Source: Candidatus Curtissbacteria bacterium RIFCSPLOWO2_02_41_11 (lineage in GTDB: Bacteria; Patescibacteriota; Microgenomatia; Curtissbacterales; GWA2-41-24). Taken from it: 64,000 nt of DNA. Below, piece after piece: positions 7,771 through 55,568 of this stretch. The stretch spans positions 1,683 through 65,682 of the forward strand of contig MFBU01000007.1 in the NCBI GenBank assembly GCA_001775055.1, given 5' to 3'. A program made the position numbers and the translations under genes. Every line of letters begins with the position of its first letter. The first letter of the stretch is position 1. The notes below the pieces were generated by a model that saw only the letters and a program-made list of their open reading frames with translations, was not told the DNA's origin and made no database searches.

Positions 7771-7821
7771 TTTAACAAAATTTAAAAGGGTAACGCAAGG
7801 GTTTTTAAACACGGCCCGCGG
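7771..7821. repeat. family-D repeat (right arm)
   Basis: see 6611-6670; adjacent 7728-7760 also carries the 'gaagctttatgcgaagga' 18-mer shared with 44199-44216. Confidence 0.5.
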
Positions 7822-8689
7822 ATCCAAATACCTCAATTTTCGCCTCAACCACTGCCGCCACCGCCAAAATTACATCCGGCACAAGCTTATACATTGCGTA
7901 TTCATCAGGATTCTCAGCCATTTTCTCACTCAAAGCATCTTTATATTCCTGCCGCAGTTCCGTATTGACATTAATTTTGACAATTTTGCCAACCTCAATC
8001 GCGCGCCTGACTTGATCAGCCGATATCCCAGATCCGCCATGCAGCGAAAGAAAAGTATTAGGCAGTGACTTGCGAATTCTTGCCAAAAGGTCAAGATCTA
8101 AATCCGGTTGAGTTGGGAAAACTCCATGGACATTGCCAAAAACCGCAGCCATTATATCGACACCGGTTTGAGATACAAACCGCGCAGCCTTCAGCGGATC
8201 AGTATATGATTTATGAAGTGCCTCAAAATCAATCTCCTCATTATGAACCACACTTGAACCGGCAATTTTGTCAATCTCTCCTTCGACAAGAACCTGCCTG
8301 CCGGCAGGCAGGGCCTTTGCATGCGCCGCTTCAATTACTTTTTTGCAACCACTGATGTTCTCTGAAAACTCAAGTTCTGAACCATCAAAGTGGATTAGGT
8401 CGAAACTTGACTGATCAATTGCTTGCATACAATCTTCAACCTTTTTTGCATGGTCCAGATTTAAAAGAATCGGAATGCCGTATTCCTCTCTCGCGTTGAC
8501 TACCAGACTGACAATATTTTTTAATCCAAAATATTCCACCTCACCTGACGAAAATTCCACCATCACCGGCGATTTTTTGCGCTGAGCCGCCACACAAATC
8601 GCCTTAAAAATATCTAAATTATCCGCATTAAACGCCCCGATAGCAAAACCATCTTGTTGAGCTTTCTCAAACCATTCTCTTACAGTCAT
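7805..8689 (-). CDS. fba: class II fructose-bisphosphate aldolase
   Basis: 294 aa; 'FAIGAFNADNLD' N-terminus and 'HGGSG' zinc-site region typical of class II ketose-bisphosphate aldolases; carries palindrome 'cctgcctgccggcaggcagg' in-frame ('LPAGRQ'). Confidence 0.85.
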   Translation of the reverse strand: MTVREWFEKAQQDGFAIGAFNADNLDIFKAICVAAQRKKSPVMVEFSSGEVEYFGLKNIVSLVVNAREEYGIPILLNLDHAKKVEDCMQAIDQSSFDLIHFDGSELEFSENISGCKKVIEAAHAKALPAGRQVLVEGEIDKIAGSSVVHNEEIDFEALHKSYTDPLKAARFVSQTGVDIMAAVFGNVHGVFPTQPDLDLDLLARIRKSLPNTFLSLHGGSGISADQVRRAIEVGKIVKINVNTELRQEYKDALSEKMAENPDEYAMYKLVPDVILAVAAVVEAKIEVFGSAGRV

Positions 8690-12860: not shown

Positions 12861-14198
12861 CTAAATCTTAAAAGTTTTCTTAACCTTTAAAATTCCCTCC
12901 ACCAACCGATCTATCTCCTCTTTCGTATTGTAAATATAAAAACTCGCTCGCGCAGCCGATGCTATTCCTAAAAACTCCATCAAAGGCTGGGCGCAGTGAT
13001 GACCGGAGCGAATGGCAACTCCTTCCGAATCAAGAATCGAAGCCACATCATGGGCATGAATGTTGCTGACGTTAAACGAGACGACTCCAGCTCTTTTGTC
13101 ATCATCAAAACCACCTCTCTTGTCATCGCGAGCAAAGCGAAGCGATCTATTCTCGCTATTTTTAGATTGCTTCGTCGTCCCGATTGAATCGGGGTTCCTC
13201 GCAATGACATTTGAACGTGGTCCATAAATAATTACATCCGGAATCTTCGACAGTCTCTCAATCGCATACTTCGTCAGCTCAATCTCATGCTTCCTTATAT
13301 TATCCATCCCCAAAGCTTGTAGATAATCCACTGCTGCCCCAAGCCCCACGACTCCGGCCACATCAGGGGTCCCAGCCTCAAATTTCCAAGGCAAATCATT
13401 CCAAGAAGATTCATCAAGGGTAACTTTTGAGATCATCTCTCCTCCAAACAAAAAGGGCGGCATCTTTTCTAAAAGTTCGCGCCTTGCCCATAGAACTCCG
13501 ACTCCAGTTGGCCCCAGCATTTTATGTCCTGTGAATACATAAAAATCACAGCCGATTGAGCCGATATCAACCGGCATATGAGGAACAGCTTGCGCACCGT
13601 CAATCAGGATTTTCGCCCTCGGTGATTGTCGACGGACTATAGTCGACAGACTATCGACCTGATTAATTGTTCCAAGAACGTTTGAAACATGGAAGAAAGT
13701 AACAAGCTTCGTCTTTTTAGTTAAAGCTTTCTTAAAAGCAACTAAATCCAGCTCTCCATTTTCATCAACGGGAATTATTTTAAGAACTGCGCCGTTTTCC
13801 GCCGCCAATTGCTGCCAGACCACAAAATTCGAATGGTGCTCGGCAACCGTCAACACGATCTCATCTTCCTTATTTATATTGAGTCTTCCCCAAGCATAAG
13901 CGACTAAATTAATTGCCTCGGTCGCATTGCGAACAAAAATAATTTCGCTAACATCCCCGACTCCCAGAAATTTCGCAATCTTAGCTCTTGCTGTCTCATA
14001 AGCCTCCGTCGCCTCAACGCTAAGAGTGTGAATTCCCCTATGCACATTGGCATTATGACTTCGATAATAGTTAGTAATCGCCTCAATTACCTGCCTCGGC
14101 TTCTGTGAAGTCGCCGCATTATCCAAATAAACCAACGGATGGCCATTGACCTTGCGGCTAAGAATCGGAAAATCCCTACGAATCTTTGCAATATTCAT
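12861..14198 (-). CDS. sufS: cysteine desulfurase SufS (carries ~90-bp in-frame repeat insertion)
   Basis: 445 aa; 'LDNAATSQKP', PLP-lysine 'FTGHKMLGPTGVG', active-site 'RSGHHCAQP'; ~35 aa longer than typical SufS. Confidence 0.85.
   Translation of the reverse strand: MNIAKIRRDFPILSRKVNGHPLVYLDNAATSQKPRQVIEAITNYYRSHNANVHRGIHTLSVEATEAYETARAKIAKFLGVGDVSEIIFVRNATEAINLVAYAWGRLNINKEDEIVLTVAEHHSNFVVWQQLAAENGAVLKIIPVDENGELDLVAFKKALTKKTKLVTFFHVSNVLGTINQVDSLSTIVRRQSPRAKILIDGAQAVPHMPVDIGSIGCDFYVFTGHKMLGPTGVGVLWARRELLEKMPPFLFGGEMISKVTLDESSWNDLPWKFEAGTPDVAGVVGLGAAVDYLQALGMDNIRKHEIELTKYAIERLSKIPDVIIYGPRSNVIARNPDSIGTTKQSKNSENRSLRFARDDKRGGFDDDKRAGVVSFNVSNIHAHDVASILDSEGVAIRSGHHCAQPLMEFLGIASAARASFYIYNTKEEIDRLVEGILKVKKTFKI
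13121..13210. repeat. TIR-bounded element inserted in-frame in sufS ('cttgtcatcgcgag...ctcgcaatgacat')
   Basis: 12-bp terminal inverted repeats; encodes 'IARNPDSIGTTKQSKNSENRSLRFARDDKRGGFDDDKR'; internal 'cgcgagcaaagcgaagcgatc' related to other repeat families. Confidence 0.6.
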
Positions 14199-24139: not shown

Positions 24140-24215
24140 CTACCTCCACCTCGGGGGAGTCAAAGCCTGCCTACCGGCAGGCAGGTCCACCCCCAAGGTG
24201 ATTGCATATATGTAG
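24140..24215. repeat. GC-rich palindromic element ('cacctcggggg...gcctgcctaccggcaggcagg...cccccaaggtg')
   Basis: nested inverted repeats; the 'cctgcc..ggcagg' palindrome recurs at 8293, 35496, 51116. Confidence 0.5.
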
Positions 24216-35464: not shown

Positions 35465-36290
35465 GCGTTAATCGGTTACGAAGCCAGTTTCGTTTACCTG
35501 CCTGCCAAGCAGGCAGGGCGGTTACGTTTTACGTCTGACGCCTCACGATACGGGCGTCGTCACCCTAACCGTCTGACCTTAACCCGCGCTCCTTGCTATC
35601 TCTACCTCTTTTTCAATATCAACGGCAAAAACCCAGGAAAAGTTGGCCGCCACCACAAAAGCTATAATGGCAATCTGCGCATAGGTTACTCCCAGAATCG
35701 TCGAGATAACTAAAAAAGCCACAGAAAGCCAAAGGAAAACGAGCCAAATGGCCGCCTGATGATAAAGGTGGTAACTTGGAGCAACTAAGCTTTCCAAATT
35801 GAGTCGAACTAGTCTGGCATGAAGAGTTGGATGGATGTGGCTTTCATGAAAAAAGTGGGCACGCACCAAAACTATAATTGTGCCCAGGGCGGCTATTGAA
35901 AACATCGCTAAATTCGAATAATTTTCGGCAATAGTGTAATTGGCCAAATCGGTAAAGTGAACAGATGGCAACACCTTAAAAATTTGGCCATTGACAAGAG
36001 TTATGGGCATTTTTAAAAAATAGATGACCAGAAAAAGCCCGAGCATTTTACCAAAGATCAAGGCTGCAGCCGGCATGATCGCCTCATCAATTAACTTGGC
36101 TAGCGATTTGGTGATCATACTCTAAATATAGCAGATTCCGGAAAGCAGATGGTTACGGTGACGATACCCGTTTCGTGAGGCGTTTTGGGTCTTACGTGTT
36201 TATTGGTTTTTACGATTAACGTAACCGATAAACGATACGAGCATCGTGACCCTTCAGCTCTAAACGAAACCCAGGCAAACTGACTTCGCC
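35465..36290. mobile_element. candidate non-autonomous cassette: ~100-bp imperfect inverted repeats flanking one membrane-protein gene
   Basis: left arm 35531-35575 'acgtctgacgcctcacgatacgggcgtcgtcaccctaaccgtctg' is reverse-complement-similar to right arm 36146-36197; outer segments also match ('cgaag(c/t)cagttt', 'cggttacg'). Confidence 0.5.
35579..36118 (-). CDS. hypothetical 5-TM membrane protein (cargo of IR-flanked cassette)
   Basis: 179 aa; no known domain. Confidence 0.35.
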   Translation of the reverse strand: MITKSLAKLIDEAIMPAAALIFGKMLGLFLVIYFLKMPITLVNGQIFKVLPSVHFTDLANYTIAENYSNLAMFSIAALGTIIVLVRAHFFHESHIHPTLHARLVRLNLESLVAPSYHLYHQAAIWLVFLWLSVAFLVISTILGVTYAQIAIIAFVVAANFSWVFAVDIEKEVEIARSAG

Positions 36291-36315: not shown

Positions 36316-37152
36316 TCATGGTAATTTTTTAGCATACTGGCTGGAAATCCAGCCTTGTTTATCCTCAAATTTAACCTTGACCCAATCTTTCGTCTCCTGA
36401 ATAATTTCCAGCTCGTCTCCCGTCTTGACCCTGCCAATTTCCGGTGAGTCGAGTGAGGCTTCTTTGCGCACTCTCAAAAACCCTGTCGGAGTAGCTAAAA
36501 TCCGCACTTTTTGAACTGATAGTGCAGGAACCGGTGAAGGTTGAACTTGGGGATTTTTGGCTATTTCCGAGGCCAAAGTGACATCGGCAACTACCTGATA
36601 TTTATTTGAGGCTTTAACAGCAAACTCACGATTAATATAACCAGCCTTAGTAAGGGTAATTTTATGTTCGCCTTCTTCAAGTTTTTCGACTAAATATGGA
36701 GTTTTGCCGACTAACTTACCGTCCATAGTAATCTCCACTTCACTCGGCATTGATGAAACAAAAAGACCCCTTTTACCACTTTCAAGCCAAAGAGTCTCAC
36801 CAGACTCGGCCAAAAAATTATTGGCAAGCTCCCGGTTAACGACCGTTAAAGTTCCACCGCTCAAAGTTATTTTTTCGACAAAACTAGCCTCACCAGCCGT
36901 AATTTTTAGCAAATATTCGCCAACTTTAAGCTGATCGGAAAAAAACGGGGTTTTGCCAAGGTGCTTACCATCAAGAAAAACCGAAGCCTCGGGAATAGAA
37001 GTAATCTGAAGCGCTGCCGGTTTGGTCGTACCGATGGCACTGCAACCGAAAAAAATAGTAGCTAGTAGCAGGTAGCTGGTAGCTGGTAGCAAGACTTTTA
37101 GGACTTTAGCTTTAGTCGTTAAATGTTTAGCTTTTGACGATATGAAAGGCAT
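36316..37152 (-). CDS. lipoprotein with PEGA domains and C-terminal SH3b domain
   Basis: PEGA-like 'ITSIPEASVFLDGKHLGKTP' and 'EITMDGKLVGKTPY'; C-terminal 'GDELEIIQETKDWVKVKFEDKQGWI' SH3b-like; start set at internal Met so the ORF does not run over repeat copy 3. Confidence 0.5.
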   Translation of the reverse strand: MPFISSKAKHLTTKAKVLKVLLPATSYLLLATIFFGCSAIGTTKPAALQITSIPEASVFLDGKHLGKTPFFSDQLKVGEYLLKITAGEASFVEKITLSGGTLTVVNRELANNFLAESGETLWLESGKRGLFVSSMPSEVEITMDGKLVGKTPYLVEKLEEGEHKITLTKAGYINREFAVKASNKYQVVADVTLASEIAKNPQVQPSPVPALSVQKVRILATPTGFLRVRKEASLDSPEIGRVKTGDELEIIQETKDWVKVKFEDKQGWISSQYAKKLP

Positions 37153-39492: not shown

Positions 39493-39572
39493 AGTTGGTA
39501 GTTCATAGATAATAGTTCGTAGTAAAATACTGACTACGGCCTACAAACTACAAACTAAAAACTGCGACTAAA
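39493..39572. repeat. family-C repeat ('agttcgtagtaa...ctacaaactacaaactaaaaactgcgac')
   Basis: shares 'aaactacaaactac' / 'ttactacgaact' with in-frame inserts in tsaD (50858-50912) and the NTase gene (45857-45895). Confidence 0.5.
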
Positions 39573-44802: not shown

Positions 44803-44857
44803 TTGGCTGAATTATACTATGAGATGCTAGAATGTCAAGTTTAGCTTCTTAATCCTC

Positions 44858-44940
44858 TTTTGATACTCCCCCATCACCCACTCCTGAGTATCTTGCGGGT
44901 GGAACAAGAGTTGGTGGTCCCCTATTTTTTCGGGTGGTGA
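44858..44940 (-). pseudogene. orphan duplicated 3'-end fragment of the nucleotidyltransferase gene (45677-46564)
   Basis: ~85 nt ~80% identical to 45728-45812; translates to 'EKIGDHQLLFHPQDTQEWVMGEYQKR' vs 'EKIGKHQLFFHPQNTGEWVMEEYQKR'. Confidence 0.5.
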
Positions 44941-45396
44941 TTATTGAGGTCTTAACAACTGTATTGGCAATTGTTTAAAGCTTTTCAATCGGCGATCGCT
45001 GGTTACAAACACGTCAGCTCGTGCCTGAAGGGCCGTTGCCAGTTGAATGGAATCAGCTAGGGAAAATTGATATTTGCGCCTTATGTCTGCTGTCGTTATT
45101 GCAATGTTGTTATCAACAGGAACAATGACAAGAAAAGAAATTGCCAGAAATTCTTCTTGGAGGTGACTTCTTAGGACAGGTGCTTTGTTGGTAGCAAGTA
45201 ATTCTGCCAAGGTAATGGCACTGGTCACTACAGTCGTTCGCTCAAGGGAAAACTTGCGGAATAACTCTCTGACTATTGGTCCAAAGCGAGGATGTTTTTG
45301 GAAAAAGTAAATGAAGATATTGGTATCTATGGCAACTGTATGGAAGCTATTTACTAAAGCTCTTTTCAAATTTCTGGAGTTTTTCTTCCCACTCAT
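44941..45396 (-). CDS. vapC: PIN-domain toxin VapC
   Basis: 151 aa; 'VAIDTNIFIYFF', 'TSAITLAEL', 'FVTSDRRL' PIN acidic residues. Confidence 0.75.
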   Translation of the reverse strand: MSGKKNSRNLKRALVNSFHTVAIDTNIFIYFFQKHPRFGPIVRELFRKFSLERTTVVTSAITLAELLATNKAPVLRSHLQEEFLAISFLVIVPVDNNIAITTADIRRKYQFSLADSIQLATALQARADVFVTSDRRLKSFKQLPIQLLRPQ

Positions 45397-45622: not shown

Positions 45623-45629
45623 AGTATCA

Positions 45630-45680
45630 CCAAGTCAGACTTGGTATGACAATACTACCAATTTTTGTCATACCTGTCAA
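45630..45680 (-). promoter_or_regulatory. vapBC promoter (TTGACA-17-TAGTAT) with 10-bp inverted repeat GGTATGACAA/TTGTCATACC and 'ccaagtcagacttgg' palindrome
   Basis: seen in sequence directly upstream of vapB ATG. Confidence 0.5.
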
Positions 45681-46564
45681 TTAGGAATAACTGCATTATT
45701 TTTTAGTTTAAGCTTAATCAGCCGCTTTTGATACTCCTCCATCACCCACTCTCCAGTATTTTGCGGGTGGAAGAAAAGTTGGTGTTTGCCGATTTTTTCA
45801 GTGGTGATTTTGGGGTGCATATACCAGAGTTGAAAGTTTTTGAGAAAACTTTCAACAGTTCGTAGTAAGTAGTTAGTAGTTGGTAGTTTCTTTTTCTCTG
45901 ATCTATGATCTACAACCCCAAAATTAACTTGCCAATTCGGAAGGAATTTATATATCCATTTATTAGCATCGATAAATCGTCGGTAAGTCTTGTCCCGATC
46001 CCAAATTGGTTTCATTTGACAAATTTCGTGGGCAAGATAGAGATTTTGGGGACTGATTTTAAGGTCTGATTCGTCGATAAGGACATTAAGGCAAGCTCGA
46101 TCTGCAACTTTTTGACCCTTGACATCTCTTTTAAACGGCACGAGCAAAATGTTTGCCACAAAACGGGTTGTCCAGAGAGTATTTTGGGAGGTTATTAAAA
46201 CCAAATCAATATCATCATTTTTGTGACTGTTTTGCATGGCCAAAGCACCTGATATCGCCATCAACTTTAAAGTCGGAATGATTTTCAGAACTTTAGCAAA
46301 AAAAAGGGCTTTTTTGAATTTGAACTTTGAATATTTTTGCCTTTGCTTGCGCAGGCTGACGATTTGTATTCGACCCTTGAGAAAATAATATTGGCCTTTT
46401 TGGCCAATTTTTGATGACTTCGTCAAAATCAATAATTCTTTGGCGACTGCATCGAGTTTGCTCCTCTTCCCTATTAAATATTGATGGACTTCTTGAACAG
46501 TCAGTGGATAATCGAAAATGTCATGGTAGGCGAAAGTGGCTAGGATTGACTGCGACAAGGTCAT
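45677..46564 (-). CDS. Pol-beta-superfamily nucleotidyltransferase (GS-x10-DxD motif), function unknown
   Basis: 295 aa; 'ISGALAMQNSHKNDDIDLVLI' (G[SA]...DhD) and downstream 'LNVLIDESD'; carries family-C repeat in-frame (45857-45895). Confidence 0.5.
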   Translation of the reverse strand: MTLSQSILATFAYHDIFDYPLTVQEVHQYLIGKRSKLDAVAKELLILTKSSKIGQKGQYYFLKGRIQIVSLRKQRQKYSKFKFKKALFFAKVLKIIPTLKLMAISGALAMQNSHKNDDIDLVLITSQNTLWTTRFVANILLVPFKRDVKGQKVADRACLNVLIDESDLKISPQNLYLAHEICQMKPIWDRDKTYRRFIDANKWIYKFLPNWQVNFGVVDHRSEKKKLPTTNYLLRTVESFLKNFQLWYMHPKITTEKIGKHQLFFHPQNTGEWVMEEYQKRLIKLKLKNNAVIPN

Positions 46565-50427: not shown

Positions 50428-51621
50428 ATGATAATTTTAGGGATTGAATCCACCTGTGACGAGACCGGAGTAGCAATTGTTGAGTGGGATCCTTCTCAAG
50501 ACTCGGGACTAAAGGTTTTAGCTAATGTCATCGCCTCCTCGGTTGAATTGCATAAAAAGTATAGCGGTGTTGTTCCGGAGGTTGCAGCACGCGAGCAAGT
50601 AAGAGTAATTATCCCCGTGGTCAATGAGGCTTTGACAAGAGCATTCGGATCAATTCGCAGTAATAATTCGTACAAATTTGGATGCCAAATTGATGCCATT
50701 GCAGTTGCTCACGGTCCGGGACTAGTCGGCTCACTTTTGATCGGTGTCGAAACTGCCAAGGCTCTAGCTTTAGTCTGGAATAAGCCATTGATCCCGATTA
50801 ATCACCTGATGGGTCATGTCTATGCCAATTGGCTTCAACCAGTTGGTAGTATTGAGTCGGTAGCTGGTAGTAAAAATAAAAAAACTAAAAACTACAAACT
50901 ACGAACTCCAGACTTTCCTTTAGTCGCCCTAGTCGTCTCCGGTGGACATACGGATTTAATATTGATGACCGATCATAACAAATATCGATGGCTTGGCGGA
51001 ACTTTGGATGATGCAGCCGGCGAAGCGTTCGATAAAGTGGCTCGAATTTTGGGATTAGGATATCCTGGAGGGCCGGAGATTGAGCGAGCAGCTCAACAAC
51101 TGACAACTGACAATGGGCCTGCCTTACCGGCAGGCAGGCAATTGACATTTAAATTACCTCGGCCGCTGATTAACTCGACCAGCTTTGATTTCTCATTCTC
51201 GGGGCTTAAGACTGCCGTTGTTCATTATTCTAGTCAAATGTCAGATACTCGCCTCGCTTCGCTTGCGAAGCGGGTCAAAGGTCCCGGCGCCGTCAAAACT
51301 TTAGCAGGCAGGCAAGTGTCTGCGATAGCGCATGAGTTTCAGCAGGCAGTATGCGATATTCTAGTAACAAAAACCTTAAGAGCCGCCAAAAAATATCAAG
51401 TGGAATCAATTGTTGTCGGTGGAGGAGTAGCAGCAAATCAACGGTTGCGTTCACTGTTAACGGTTAATGGATCACGGTTGGGAATTCCTGTTTTCTTTCC
51501 AGAGAAAAATCTTTCAACTGACAATGGGGCAATGATTGCCGCAGCAGCGTTCTTTCATCCGTATCAAATTAATCCTCTGAAACTTTCTGCAGTTCCCGGC
51601 CTTTATTTCGATCAAACTTGA
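50428..51621 (+). CDS. tsaD: tRNA N6-adenosine threonylcarbamoyltransferase TsaD (with three repeat-derived in-frame insertions)
   Basis: 397 aa (~55 aa longer than typical); 'ILGIESTCDETGVAIV', 'VAHGPGLVGSLLIGV', 'VSGGHT', 'GGGVAANQRLR'. Confidence 0.85.
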   Translation: MIILGIESTCDETGVAIVEWDPSQDSGLKVLANVIASSVELHKKYSGVVPEVAAREQVRVIIPVVNEALTRAFGSIRSNNSYKFGCQIDAIAVAHGPGLVGSLLIGVETAKALALVWNKPLIPINHLMGHVYANWLQPVGSIESVAGSKNKKTKNYKLRTPDFPLVALVVSGGHTDLILMTDHNKYRWLGGTLDDAAGEAFDKVARILGLGYPGGPEIERAAQQLTTDNGPALPAGRQLTFKLPRPLINSTSFDFSFSGLKTAVVHYSSQMSDTRLASLAKRVKGPGAVKTLAGRQVSAIAHEFQQAVCDILVTKTLRAAKKYQVESIVVGGGVAANQRLRSLLTVNGSRLGIPVFFPEKNLSTDNGAMIAAAAFFHPYQINPLKLSAVPGLYFDQT

Positions 51622-52073: not shown

Positions 52074-54248
52074 ATGAAATTTAAAAACGAAAATGATATC
52101 TATGCTTTTTGGAAAAAGTCCGGCTTTTTTAAAGCCGACCCGACTTCTACCAATAAACCTTATTCCCTGTTAATCCCCCCTCCAAATTTAACTGGCGAAC
52201 TTCACTTGGGTCATGCCATGCAGCATTCTATTTTAGATGCAATCGCCCGCTTTAAAAGGTTACAAGGATTAGATGTTTTACTTTTGCCCGGAGTCGATCA
52301 TGCCGGAATTTTGTTTGAGGCGACATTTGAGAAAGAACTTGAAAAAGAAAATTTATCTAAGGAAAAACTCGGGCGTGAAGAATGGCTAAAAAAAGCCTGG
52401 CAATTCAAAGAAAAAATTTATCAATCAGTTTCCTCGACTTGGCGATTTATGGGACTTTCCGCAGATTGGTCAAGAGAAGTTTTTACATTAGATCCCGATC
52501 CTCAAAAAGCGGTCTTTGAAGAATTTAAAACCTATTTTGAAAAAGGCTTAATTTACAAAGGTCCTTACATTGTTCAATGGTGCCCTGGATGCAATACGGC
52601 CATTGAGGATGTGGAGGTGGAATACGATGAGAGAAAAGAAAAATTATATTACCTCAAATATGGTCCATTAATCTTGGCAACTGCCCGACCAGAAACAAAG
52701 TTCGGTGACACGGCAATGGCCGTCAATCCGCAGGACAAGCGTTACCAAAAATATGTCAGTTGCGAATTTGAAATCGAAACTCTCGCAGGAAAAAGGGGAA
52801 TGAAAGTTATCGCTGATGAGGCGGTTGATCCAAAATTTGGGACTGGGGTGATTAAAGTAACTCCGGGTCACGATTTTGCGGATTATGAAATTGGCAAGAG
52901 ACATAATCTACCAATCATCCAAGTGATTAACAAAGAAGGTAGACTGACCAAGGCAGCTGGTAAATATGCAGGGATGAAAGTTGATGAAGCAAGAAGAGCG
53001 ATGATCCCAGAGCTTAAAAAAAGAGGACTCTTAGTTAAAGTGGAAGACTATACTCATTCGGTTGCAGTCTGCGAAAGATGTAAAAGTGTAGTTGAACCTT
53101 TAATTTCCGAAGAGTGGTTTGTCAAAGTCAAAGATATGGCAAAAGAAGCAGTCAAAGTAATAAAGGCGGGAAAGATTGAATTTTTGCCAAATAACTATGG
53201 CAAAATCCTGATTGACTGGTTTGCTAACATTCACGATTGGTGCATTTCAAGATCTCTTTGGTGGGGACATCGAATACCCGTTTGGTATCCTTCAACTCGC
53301 TCAGCTCACTCAGGACAAGTCGAAAAGATGAGGGTCTCTTTAGAATCACCAGGAGACGGATGGATACAAGACGAGCAGGTTTTAGATACCTGGTTCTCTT
53401 CCGGGCTTTGGCCAATGTCAACTTTAGGATGGGTCGGAATAAGTCAAAGTGAAAAGTCAAAGTGGAAAGAAATGTCCAAGTATTTCCCCTGGGATTTTGA
53501 AATCTCGGCACCGGAAATTAAGTTTTTGTGGATTGCTAGGATGATTATGATCAGTAAATATTTTACAGACGAAATTCCATTTAAAACTATGTTTTTTCAT
53601 GGGATGCTTCGAGATCTTTTGGGTCGAAAGTTTTCCAAATCGCTGGGAAACGGCATCGAACCAACTTATCTAATTGAAAAATGGGGCGTTGATGCTACTC
53701 GTATGGCTCTTTATACCTACAGTATTCCTAGCCGCGATGGCCGGGTTTCAAAAGAAATAATGGACGAGCGAGGTAAAAATTACCGCAATTTTGCAACCAA
53801 AGTTAGAAATATAGCCAGGTTTATTTACGAACTCAAACCAGATTCCTCCTCCGAGGTGAAGTCTAGTCAACATCAAGAGAGCACCTCGGAGGTGGAGCAT
53901 GCGGATGACAAGTGGATTTTGGGTGAACTTGAGAAAACTATCAAATCAGTAACTAAAAATCTAGAAGAAATCAAGCTTCACTTGGCATCTGAGGCAATTT
54001 ACGATTTTATCTGGCACAAATTTGCCGACATTTATCTTGAAAAAAGCAAAGCAAGGAGAGAAGAGGCCCAACCGGTTCTGGAATATGTTTTAAAGACCAG
54101 TTTAATAATTCTACATCCATTTATGCCGTTTACGACCGAGGAAATTTATCAGAAATTTGCAGACAGGAAGAAGTCGATCATGTTGGAAGAATGGTCTATC
54201 ATTAAGTTGTCGAATGCTAGAAGACTAACGACTAACGCAAAAGGTTAG
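52074..54248 (+). CDS. valS: valyl-tRNA synthetase
   Basis: 724 aa; HIGH 'PPPNLTGELHLGHA', KMSKS 'KFSKSLGN', editing domain; short C-terminus; palindromic in-frame insert at 53846-53893. Confidence 0.9.
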   Translation: MKFKNENDIYAFWKKSGFFKADPTSTNKPYSLLIPPPNLTGELHLGHAMQHSILDAIARFKRLQGLDVLLLPGVDHAGILFEATFEKELEKENLSKEKLGREEWLKKAWQFKEKIYQSVSSTWRFMGLSADWSREVFTLDPDPQKAVFEEFKTYFEKGLIYKGPYIVQWCPGCNTAIEDVEVEYDERKEKLYYLKYGPLILATARPETKFGDTAMAVNPQDKRYQKYVSCEFEIETLAGKRGMKVIADEAVDPKFGTGVIKVTPGHDFADYEIGKRHNLPIIQVINKEGRLTKAAGKYAGMKVDEARRAMIPELKKRGLLVKVEDYTHSVAVCERCKSVVEPLISEEWFVKVKDMAKEAVKVIKAGKIEFLPNNYGKILIDWFANIHDWCISRSLWWGHRIPVWYPSTRSAHSGQVEKMRVSLESPGDGWIQDEQVLDTWFSSGLWPMSTLGWVGISQSEKSKWKEMSKYFPWDFEISAPEIKFLWIARMIMISKYFTDEIPFKTMFFHGMLRDLLGRKFSKSLGNGIEPTYLIEKWGVDATRMALYTYSIPSRDGRVSKEIMDERGKNYRNFATKVRNIARFIYELKPDSSSEVKSSQHQESTSEVEHADDKWILGELEKTIKSVTKNLEEIKLHLASEAIYDFIWHKFADIYLEKSKARREEAQPVLEYVLKTSLIILHPFMPFTTEEIYQKFADRKKSIMLEEWSIIKLSNARRLTTNAKG

Positions 54249-54797: not shown

Positions 54798-55568
54798 TTA
54801 CGAGGCTTTTTCTTCCGTCTTTTGGTCTGGTAATTTTTCGGTAGGTTCTTTAGCTTGTTCTTCCTTGGTTTTGGCCTCGACTTCTCCCGCTTTAGCTTCT
54901 TCGGGAGGAACAGCTTCAGGGGTAGCTTCGGCAGCAGCTTCCGGCGCGGCTTCAGCCACGGCTTCGGCCTTTTCGGCTTCAATTTCTGCTTCAACTGCTT
55001 CCATTTCCTTGGTAACAAGTTCACCAATTTGGGTAACAACTAGTTCTTCATCTTGAAGAATTGCTATTTTCGCTCGGTCAACCTTAAGATCCTTAATCTT
55101 AATTTCGTCTCCGACATTTTCCAATTTTGAAACATCGACTTCGATTTTTTCCGGTAAATCGGCAGGCAGGGCTTCAACCTCGATTTCCGATACAGGGGTT
55201 AAAAGAAGACCAATTTTCTTTTCAACAGCAGGTGCTTCGCCAACAACCTCTAAAGGAACATTTACCTTGACTTTTTCTGCTAAGTTAACCTGATAAAAAT
55301 CGATGTGCAACGGTTCATCTGTAACTGGATGAACTTGAACATTACGAATTAAAACCGGCTTCTTTTGGCTATCAATTGCCAAATCAACAATACCGGTTTC
55401 GCCAGCTTTTTCAAAAACTTTGGCAAAGTCACCTACTTTAACTTGAATATGCTCGGTTTTGACTTTGTGACCAAAAACATGGGCCGGAATAAGGCCATCT
55501 TTGCGAAGGTTTTTAACTTTACGCCCTAAAATTGTCCTTTTCTGGGCAGTCAGCGGTATTTGTTCCAT
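54798..55568 (-). CDS. rplY: 50S ribosomal protein bL25 (Ctc form) with long Glu/Ala/Lys-rich C-terminal tail
   Basis: start at 'MEQIPLTAQKRTILGRK'; L25 fold region 'GLIPAHVFGHKV'; low-complexity acidic tail. Confidence 0.8.
   Translation of the reverse strand: MEQIPLTAQKRTILGRKVKNLRKDGLIPAHVFGHKVKTEHIQVKVGDFAKVFEKAGETGIVDLAIDSQKKPVLIRNVQVHPVTDEPLHIDFYQVNLAEKVKVNVPLEVVGEAPAVEKKIGLLLTPVSEIEVEALPADLPEKIEVDVSKLENVGDEIKIKDLKVDRAKIAILQDEELVVTQIGELVTKEMEAVEAEIEAEKAEAVAEAAPEAAAEATPEAVPPEEAKAGEVEAKTKEEQAKEPTEKLPDQKTEEKAS

Follow-up and report, generated by a model that had tools for sequence, protein, structure and literature searches.

Dispersed micro-repeats within the reading frame of tsaD in a Candidatus Curtissbacteria genome

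How does an essential gene come to carry segments that resemble repeats found elsewhere in the same genome? The question is raised by tsaD in a 64,000-nucleotide stretch of DNA from Candidatus Curtissbacteria bacterium RIFCSPLOWO2_02_41_11 (contig MFBU01000007.1), the whole of which is called the window here. An initial annotation, made from the sequence alone, proposed that three segments of an unusually long TsaD protein are derived from repeats inserted in frame. The analysis described below indicates, with a probability that we put at roughly 0.8, that micro-repeats of no fewer than three unrelated families (P, G and C) have been taken up in frame by surface loops of this TsaD, that a fourth family (E) takes the place of the inserts at one of these sites in a near-identical strain, and that the elements are selfish or neutral and are tolerated in permissive loops. 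The proposal that multiple repeat families occur in this essential gene was borne out, as each segment matches a dispersed element present in unrelated genes or in intergenic DNA.

Extra segments in TsaD and their relation to repeats

With 397 aa, the TsaD of the window is indeed longer than is typical, TsaDs of solved structure having about 330 aa and compact orthologues within the clade 328–334 aa; proteins of the Microgenomates/Curtissbacteria type found by protein search range from 328 to 430 aa. The Pfam profile PF00814 matches the protein over positions 1–263 of 264 (E = 1.9e-80), and the solved bacterial TsaDs (327–354 aa) match it with E values down to 1e-65. In an alignment of 30 TsaD sequences, the columns of H126, H130 and D365 are invariant and length variation is confined to a few fixed places. 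We take H126 and H130 to be the metal-binding HxxxH motif and D365 the C-terminal Asp of the DNG motif. Going by these conserved catalytic residues, the gene presumably encodes a functional N6-threonylcarbamoyladenosine (t6A) synthase.

The solved TsaDs have gaps opposite residues ~138–160 (site A), ~224–234 (site B) and ~269–290 (site C). Compact proteins from the same clade (P0041, 332 aa; P0030, 334 aa; P0099, 328 aa) show that the window protein has five extra blocks (Table 1). Thus, the three segments noticed initially are all real, but the count fell short, since the blocks at aa 20–25 and 72–82 had been overlooked. The repeat strings that had been quoted for them are all found: the A-rich heptamer run at 50859–50907, CCTGCCTTACCGGCAGGCAGG at 51118–51138, CGCTTCGCTTGCGAAGCG at 51255–51272, and GCAGGCAGGCAA at both 51130–51141 and 51304–51315. 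The segments do not consist of conserved TsaD residues: P0041, P0030 and P0099 lack all of them, and L122/P0003, the nearest outgroup with DNA available (66% identity), lacks the inserts at sites B and C while its flanking codons are nearly identical to those of the window. An AlphaFold2 model of the protein has a mean predicted local distance difference test score (pLDDT) of 82.5 and is confident everywhere outside the insert segments; the score is below 50 at aa 139–156 and 235–238 and about 60 at aa 271–290. Other lineages carry different palindromes in the same TsaD loops, e.g. CCCGCCTGCCAAAGCTTGGCACTGGCGGGCAGG at site A of L124, and the loop of block I1 holds a 27-nt family G element in another TsaD (L258).

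The junctions of the inserts were read from codon alignments of orthologous loci that share synteny, the gene order VanW-DUF192-tsaD-valS-L25 being kept in five relatives. At site B, L122 reads GACAAT-AAA-CAATTA and the window GACAAT-GGGCCTGCCTTACCGGCAGGCAGG-CAATTG. By this comparison, site B is a clean, lineage-specific net insertion of a palindrome of 21 nt, which adds 7 aa and forms a hairpin at the DNA level (z = −3.7); the codon alignment revealed no target-site duplication. The heptamer-periodic run in which the palindrome is embedded is present in most members of the clade and counts as an insertion, too, when set against the solved TsaDs.

Members of family P have 20–21 nt and a stem of 7–10 bp, and four full copies occur in the 64 kb of the window. 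The core CCGGCAGGCAGG, with at most one mismatch, has 6 matches in the window, against 0.19 expected. The palindrome had been stated to recur in the gene for class II fructose-bisphosphate aldolase (FBA; fba) and at two intergenic sites. This holds for variants of 20–21 nt, whereas the exact 21-mer is unique to tsaD in the window. Neither Rfam nor ARAGORN, applied to the window, detected a structured RNA at the intergenic palindromes. The LPAGRQ peptide of the FBA falls in a 6-aa gap of its homologues in the PDB, and a protein that is 86–88% identical (P0122) is also without it. More distant FBAs (P0128, P0160) have LPAGRQV three codons upstream, so that the same FBA loop was hit more than once.

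Some further observations concern family P and the aldolase. A half-site, TCGGCAGGCAGG, lies at 55159–55170 in the L25 gene (minus strand) and encodes ALPAD; it is probably a chance or decayed match (0.19 expected per window). Columns ~115–145 of the class II FBA alignment form a second insertion hot spot within the clade, with inserts of 8–31 aa whose peptides include HLRG..HLGG, TSEV..TSEV and SSRQARTI. Peptides of the HLRG..HLGG and SSRQARTI types are also present at TsaD site C of relatives, and those of the TSEV type in valS.

At site C, the codon alignment shows two blocks, ACTCGCCTCGCTTCGCTTGCGAAGCGG of 27 nt and CCCGGCGCCGTCAAAACTTTAGCAGGCAGG of 30 nt, which are split by the conserved GTCAAAGGT and are both missing from L122. 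The first insert (C1) is the family G element. In the second (C2), the 12-mer GCAGGCAGGCAA that is shared with site B covers the 3' end, and C2 is possibly a decayed copy of family P. The CGCTTCGC..GCGAAGCG hairpin of family G had been listed as a repeat. No second copy was found in the window or in 1.35 Mb of fetched loci, and its repeat nature became visible in metagenomes: a scan with an 18-nt core gave the exact 27-mer CTCGCCTCGCTTCGCTTGCGAAGCGGG in eight low-GC contigs with unrelated flanks. Five of these eight copies are located in long open reading frames (ORFs), for a TatD DNase, a FemAB-like protein, a Met-tRNA formyltransferase (Fmt), an M48 peptidase and another TsaD. In this last protein, encoded on L258, the element occupies a different loop and has the opposite orientation to that in the window.

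In two of the contigs (L244 and L256) the 27-mer sits in the middle of a heptamer array, (AATTTCG)n and (TTTCTGG)n, respectively. The window has a GCGAAGCG-type sequence at 13120–13180, GTCATCGCGAGCAAAGCGAAGCGATC.., and several high-GC contigs have motifs broadly like it, GTCATCCTGAGCG..GAAGGA, on the flanks of the 18-mer core. Sequences of the GCGAAGCG type are widespread and often mis-called as small ORFs.

Site C also differs between strains. Along 15.6 kb, the JGI contig L001 matches the window at 99.96% identity, a single patch excepted. This patch includes conserved FDFSFSGLKTAVV codons with many synonymous differences, and it remains an intact, in-frame tsaD segment in which C1 and C2 are replaced by a 37-nt palindrome of family E, CACCTCCGAGGTGAAAGATCTTCACACCTCGGAGGTG (13-bp stem, z = −5.5). 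The patch looks as if a divergent lineage had contributed it by short-patch recombination, i.e. an allele swap. As the window allele resembles L122 in the flanking codons, recombination probably produced the L001 allele. A one-off chimera is argued against by the protein clusters of the two alleles, which have several members each (17 for the window type and 6 for the L001 type); both alleles come from several independent assemblies. The family E element of L001 matches an insert in the fba gene of another organism (L164) at 34 of 37 positions, loop included. A pair of such palindromes occurs in frame in valS of both genomes, where the insert adds about 10 aa as compared to the ValRS of T. thermophilus, and a similar pair is present in valS of L125. 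Hypermutation by a diversity-generating retroelement was considered for site C and is ruled out by the synonymous changes in conserved flanking codons together with the different palindrome.

Family C, found at site A, consists of two opposed heptamer arrays. Runs of the (AACTACN)3 type occur at exactly three loci in the window, against 0–1 in shuffled sequences, and the three elements align nearly gap-free, with one indel of 3–5 nt in the central loop. Their arms are 77–83% identical over about 30 nt, 5–7 standard deviations above shuffles. The copies that had been proposed at 39493 and 45857, besides the one in tsaD, are thus confirmed by the alignment over ~72 nt and the shuffle scores. Concerning the host gene at 45857, which had been called an NTase gene, the in-frame repeat and a conserved protein are confirmed, whereas the NTase label finds no Pfam or PDB match. 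A 114-nt repeat of the 3' region of this gene at 44838–44950 had raised the suspicion that the copy is a non-coding run-on of a spurious ORF. This is ruled out by the conservation, in three orthologues, of the C-terminus that lies downstream.

The two copies of this 114-nt direct repeat (44838–44950 and 45705–45816) are 82% identical. The latter is the 3' coding end of the 295-aa gene, and the former, located downstream of a gene for a PIN-domain protein, is probably a duplicated gene fragment beside a toxin-antitoxin pair. A further tandem array of heptanucleotides, (GGTAGCT)n-like, is present at 37055–37100 (tagtagctagtagcaggtagctggtagctggtagc).

Site A differs in age. In an orthologue of 59% identity (P0020) the segment has equal length and a similar sequence (KKSINYELQTP vs KKTKNYKLRTP in the window), and site A is therefore an old variable region that evolves fast and is found throughout the clade. 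It predates sites B and C and is not a recent event. In L122, the place of this segment is taken by another heptamer array, (ATTCACN)n, and it is missing altogether from several compact proteins. The initial interpretation can be refined in three respects: site A was not colonised recently, a fourth family occurs at site C of the near-identical strain, and family P is not private to this genome.

Table 1 Positions of tsaD, its extra blocks and the related repeat elements (window coordinates unless a contig is named)
Feature	Position	Strand	Remarks
tsaD	50428-51621	+	intact ORF, 397 aa, catalytic core conserved
Block I0 (WDPSQD), aa 20-25	50485-50502	+	absent from P0041, P0099, P0030 and P0003; other sequence in a few homologues
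Block I1 (AFGSIRSNNSY), aa 72-82	50641-50673	+	clade-wide variable loop
Site A block, aa 142-159 (18 aa)	50851-50904	+	missing from compact TsaDs
Site A, family C element, ~72 nt	50838-50910	+	(GGTAGNN)n, A-rich centre, (NAACTAC)n; encodes PVGSIESVAGSKNKKTKNYKLRT
Site B block, aa 230-236 (7 aa)	51115-51135	+	missing from compact TsaDs
Site B, family P 21-nt palindrome CCTGCCT..AGGCAGG	51118-51138	+	encodes (G)PALPAGR
Site B background, heptamer-periodic run	51094-51150	+	CAACTGA CAACTGA CAAT.. CAATTGA; encodes QQLTTDN..QLT
Site C block, aa 278-296	51259-51315	+	missing from compact TsaDs
Site C1, family G 27-nt element CTCGCCTCGCTTCGCTTGCGAAGCGGG	51248-51274	+	8-bp hairpin; encodes (T)RLASLAKR; absent from L122
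Site C2, 30-nt insertion CCCGGCGCCGTCAAAACTTTAGCAGGCAGG	51283-51312	+	absent from L122; 3' end repeats right arm of site B palindrome
Allelic patch	51177-51321 (145 nt) vs L001 10750-10860	+	sole differing stretch
Family P perfect 20-mer in class II FBA gene	8293-8312	-	in frame; gene 7805-8689 (-); encodes LPAGRQ
Family P intergenic copy	24166-24185		CCTGCCTACCGGCAGGCAGG
Family P intergenic variant	35497-35517		CCTGCCTGCCAAGCAGGCAGG
Family C intergenic copy	39493-39566	+	just upstream of gene starting at ~39584; stops in six frames
Family C in-frame copy	45857-45925	-	variable segment of conserved 295-aa hypothetical protein (45677-46564, -); encodes ..KKKLPTTNYLLRT
Family E palindrome pair CCTCCGAGGTG..CACCTCGGAGGTG in valS	53847-53897	+	in frame; encodes SSSEVKSSQHQESTSEVE; in both genomes
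Contigs with in-frame 27-mer	L258 482-1756; L229 3228-4181; L256 2431-3342; L279 469-1380; L244 1-612

Frame use and occurrence beyond the window

The way in which the elements are read bears on what they do in their hosts. None of the six frames is closed by a stop codon in families P and G, and four of the six are open in family E; each coding copy of family C is open solely in the frame that is used. The check on reading frames that the initial annotation called for thus shows a filter on the coding copies, the stop-rich family C elements being kept in genes only in an open frame. A single element gives different peptides in different hosts, such as RLASLAKR, PASQAKRGE, RFASEARR and PLRKRSEA for family G, and a selected peptide is hard to reconcile with such changes of frame and orientation of the same DNA; the pattern is the one left by insertion and subsequent filtering. 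Although family P itself measures 20 nt, all net insertions have lengths divisible by three, and the inserts are therefore likely translated and not removed from the RNA.

The distribution of family P was examined by scanning one genome per species (596 Gb) for CCTGCCT-N1-2-CCGGCAGGCAGG, which gave at least 120 loci. Among the matches listed, the perfect 20-nt palindrome CCTGCCTGCCGGCAGGCAGG dominates, though the pattern allows 20 variants in all, and it is present at more than 60 sites with unrelated flanks, as compared to about 0.5 expected in 596 Gb. The hosts among these matches span Patescibacteria, Omnitrophota, Bacteroidota, Planctomycetota, metagenome-assembled genomes of Proteobacteria, Nitrospira and Chloroflexi, and cultured Bacteroidota (Winogradskyella, Olivibacter, Flagellimonas) carry the palindrome as well. 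It was also detected in 35 stretches of viral contigs. Of 130 copies among the matches listed, 101 are not within an open frame of 200 codons or more. The flanks of the 130 copies share no conserved adjacent bases. The possibility that the palindrome is the tip of a larger conserved hairpin could be discarded, as the adjacent flanks pair at ~25%, which identifies it as a discrete unit. Inverted repeats are weakly enriched nearby (23/130 vs 13/118), and a minority of copies, like that of tsaD site B, are found inside heptamer arrays. Tandem duplication of the arms or nesting in other palindromes is seen in some copies (L025, L035, L076, L083, L107).

Several copies are associated with tRNA genes. 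For L151 (2239–2330), ARAGORN calls a 92-nt phage tRNA-Met in which the palindrome forms the long variable arm, and in tRNA genes or fragments of L158 (~495–560), L028 (4021–4080) and L069 (2107–2160) it is located in the D-arm. The filled site in L069 can be compared with an intact tRNA-Lys paralogue: exactly 20 nt are inserted, with no target-site duplication. A palindrome in L128 (~8590–8660) also lies within a tRNA gene or tRNA fragment. The presence of an identical 20-nt palindrome across phyla, phage contigs and tRNA genes points to some mechanism of mobilisation. Tentatively, CCTGCCTGCCGGCAGGCAGG, and probably also the elements of 27 and 37 nt, could belong to a group of ultra-small mobile elements which pass across phyla and phages and insert precisely, without target duplication, into structured DNA (essential genes, repeats, tRNA genes) by means of a universal or phage-borne mobilising activity; we consider this broader idea possible rather than probable.

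Two other features were encountered during the comparison of loci. Short hairpins of the form NNNRAGTCWGACTYNNN occur at 45629–45645 of the window, and in L125 (13667–13683), L162 (7905–7921) and L163 (3857–3873). At least two are at gene ends, with overlap of the fba stop codon in L163 and a position ~100 nt past valS in L125, and they could be a clade-specific terminator or protein-binding motif. Furthermore, a 550-aa NifU_N protein encoded by L162 (3673–5325) also matches a LAGLIDADG domain, which hints at the insertion of an intein or a homing endonuclease into this gene for an Fe-S scaffold.

Origin and tolerance of the inserts

The insertion of dispersed elements into tolerant loops can be envisaged as follows. 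The elements may land anywhere, after which purifying selection would leave the copies that preserve the frame in permissive loops. That selection spares only permissive loops would explain the recurrent hits at the same TsaD and FBA loops, and tolerance by permissive loops combined with a frame filter is well supported. The inserts would be translated with the host protein and not excised from its RNA. The substrate for mobilisation would most likely be single-stranded hairpins, with an enzyme acting in trans, in a way similar to that of repetitive extragenic palindromes (REP) with RAYT proteins or of IS200/IS605 elements. Spread between strains may occur by short-patch homologous recombination, of which the 145-nt allele swap would be an example.

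Several points weigh against this reading. Family C elements form no stable hairpin (z between −1.2 and +1.1), and site A could be an old array that evolves by slippage rather than a transposed element. No mobilising enzyme has been identified, no screen of the window ORFs having been made for one. Near-identical genomes revealed no presence/absence polymorphism of a single element, the sole polymorphism being the recombination patch. Moreover, metagenome assembly is the source of every genome used in the tsaD and fba comparisons.

The alternative that survives best, though we consider it unlikely, is that the segments are ordinary lineage-specific loop expansions, formed by local slippage, tandem duplication or template switching at quasi-palindromes, and that their likeness to sequences elsewhere reflects low complexity and compositional bias. 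Site A and the background of site B are heptamer tandem arrays of a kind readily made by slippage, site A varies in length throughout the clade, and the resemblance among family C arms is limited to 77–83% over ~30 nt. However, local processes cannot recreate identical sequences, and for sites B and C this explanation is refuted by the exact 27-mer in eight unrelated contigs and five protein families, by the perfect 20-mer at its many sites in many phyla, where about 0.5 was expected, and by the match of family E between tsaD and fba of different organisms.

Adaptive loops specific to the Candidate Phyla Radiation (CPR) are less probable still. Such loops would be derived from repeats and selected for function, for instance as partner-binding surfaces that offset a reduced TsaB/TsaE machinery, and one can point to three or more sequence clusters that keep every insert in frame and to the repeated use of the same loops for insertions in many lineages. 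Yet compact orthologues without inserts exist within the clade, and the insert sequences differ completely among close relatives, one having been swapped in the 99.96%-identical strain. The same DNA is moreover read in other frames and orientations elsewhere, and the model confidence at these segments is low. Chimeric joins at shared k-mers during metagenome assembly are the least credible source of the inserts or the site C difference: the window and the comparators for tsaD and fba do come from such assemblies and a patch bounded by identical sequence has the topology of an assembly bubble, but every insert preserves the reading frame, the swapped patch is intact and in frame, the clusters have 17 and 6 member sequences, and the palindrome is found in the three cultured genera as well.

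Comparison with known repeat systems

Small repeats within genes are known from other bacteria, and several systems resemble the one described here in part. Cyanobacteria are said to possess small dispersed repeats (SDR) of 21–27 nt that are associated with hairpins and nested in other repeats, and with which heptamer arrays of short tandemly repeated repetitive (STRR) sequences reportedly co-occur. It is SDRs that the present elements most resemble in their very small size, and the heptamer periodicity would be alike as well, whereas the phylum and probably the sequences are different; SDRs are not known for colonising essential genes in frame in a systematic way.

The enterobacterial ERIC and RU sequences are small mobile sequences that occur inside genes (Delihas, PMC2759123 and PMC2229807). 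They are likewise small, non-autonomous repeats with open frames, but at 100–170 bp they resemble miniature inverted-repeat transposable elements and have terminal inverted repeats. The elements studied here have no terminal inverted repeats, and neither L069 nor tsaD site B shows a target-site duplication, so that they do not fit the latter class. A further group is formed by REPs, GC-rich stem-loops of 20–40 bp which are mostly extragenic, although some are intragenic, with several per gene in uvrA and uvrB, and give short peptide inserts. Intragenic REPs of the GTAG and CGTC super-families have been documented in Opitutus, Rickettsia and Thioalkalivibrio (Di Nocera et al. 2013, PMC3733652). 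Family P resembles them as a repeated palindromic stem-loop of 20–21 nt that is mostly extragenic. However, the GTAG or CGTC end tag is absent from families P, G and E, and here several unrelated families occur within one gene of 1.2 kb. As to RAYT genes, no transposase Pfam domain is present among the called genes of L001 (16 kb).

A parallel is also offered by the Rickettsia palindromic elements (RPE), which characteristically are palindromic repeats inserted in frame in housekeeping genes (Ogata et al. 2000, summarised in PMC10969869). As in that system, several palindromic families are found in frame in unrelated housekeeping genes of a bacterium with a small genome, with peptides that are compatible with the fold and with intergenic copies as well. 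In-frame inserts are present in tsaD, fba, valS and the genes for TatD, Fmt and the M48 peptidase, and pLDDT is low at those of tsaD. The differences are also clear. RPEs measure ~100–150 bp, are specific to Rickettsia and have a conserved peptide per family, whereas the present elements have 20, 27, 37 or ~72 nt, belong to a CPR lineage, are read in several frames and orientations with differing peptides and, in the case of family P, are common to phyla and phage contigs.

Neither the sequences and peptides nor an account of such inserts in CPR bacteria turned up in literature searches, and apparently intragenic micro-repeats resembling the Rickettsia pattern have not yet been described for CPR/Microgenomates. 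They offer a concrete source for the odd, low-complexity insertions in CPR proteins. Since such inserts create homoplasy at the same loops, phylogenomics and annotation are affected, and the natural variants of TsaD and FBA with and without inserts are available for tests of loop tolerance. Selfish micro-repeats in housekeeping genes would thus not be unique to Rickettsia, and even smaller units than RPEs may well act in the streamlined genomes of CPR bacteria, which are usually thought to be free of junk.

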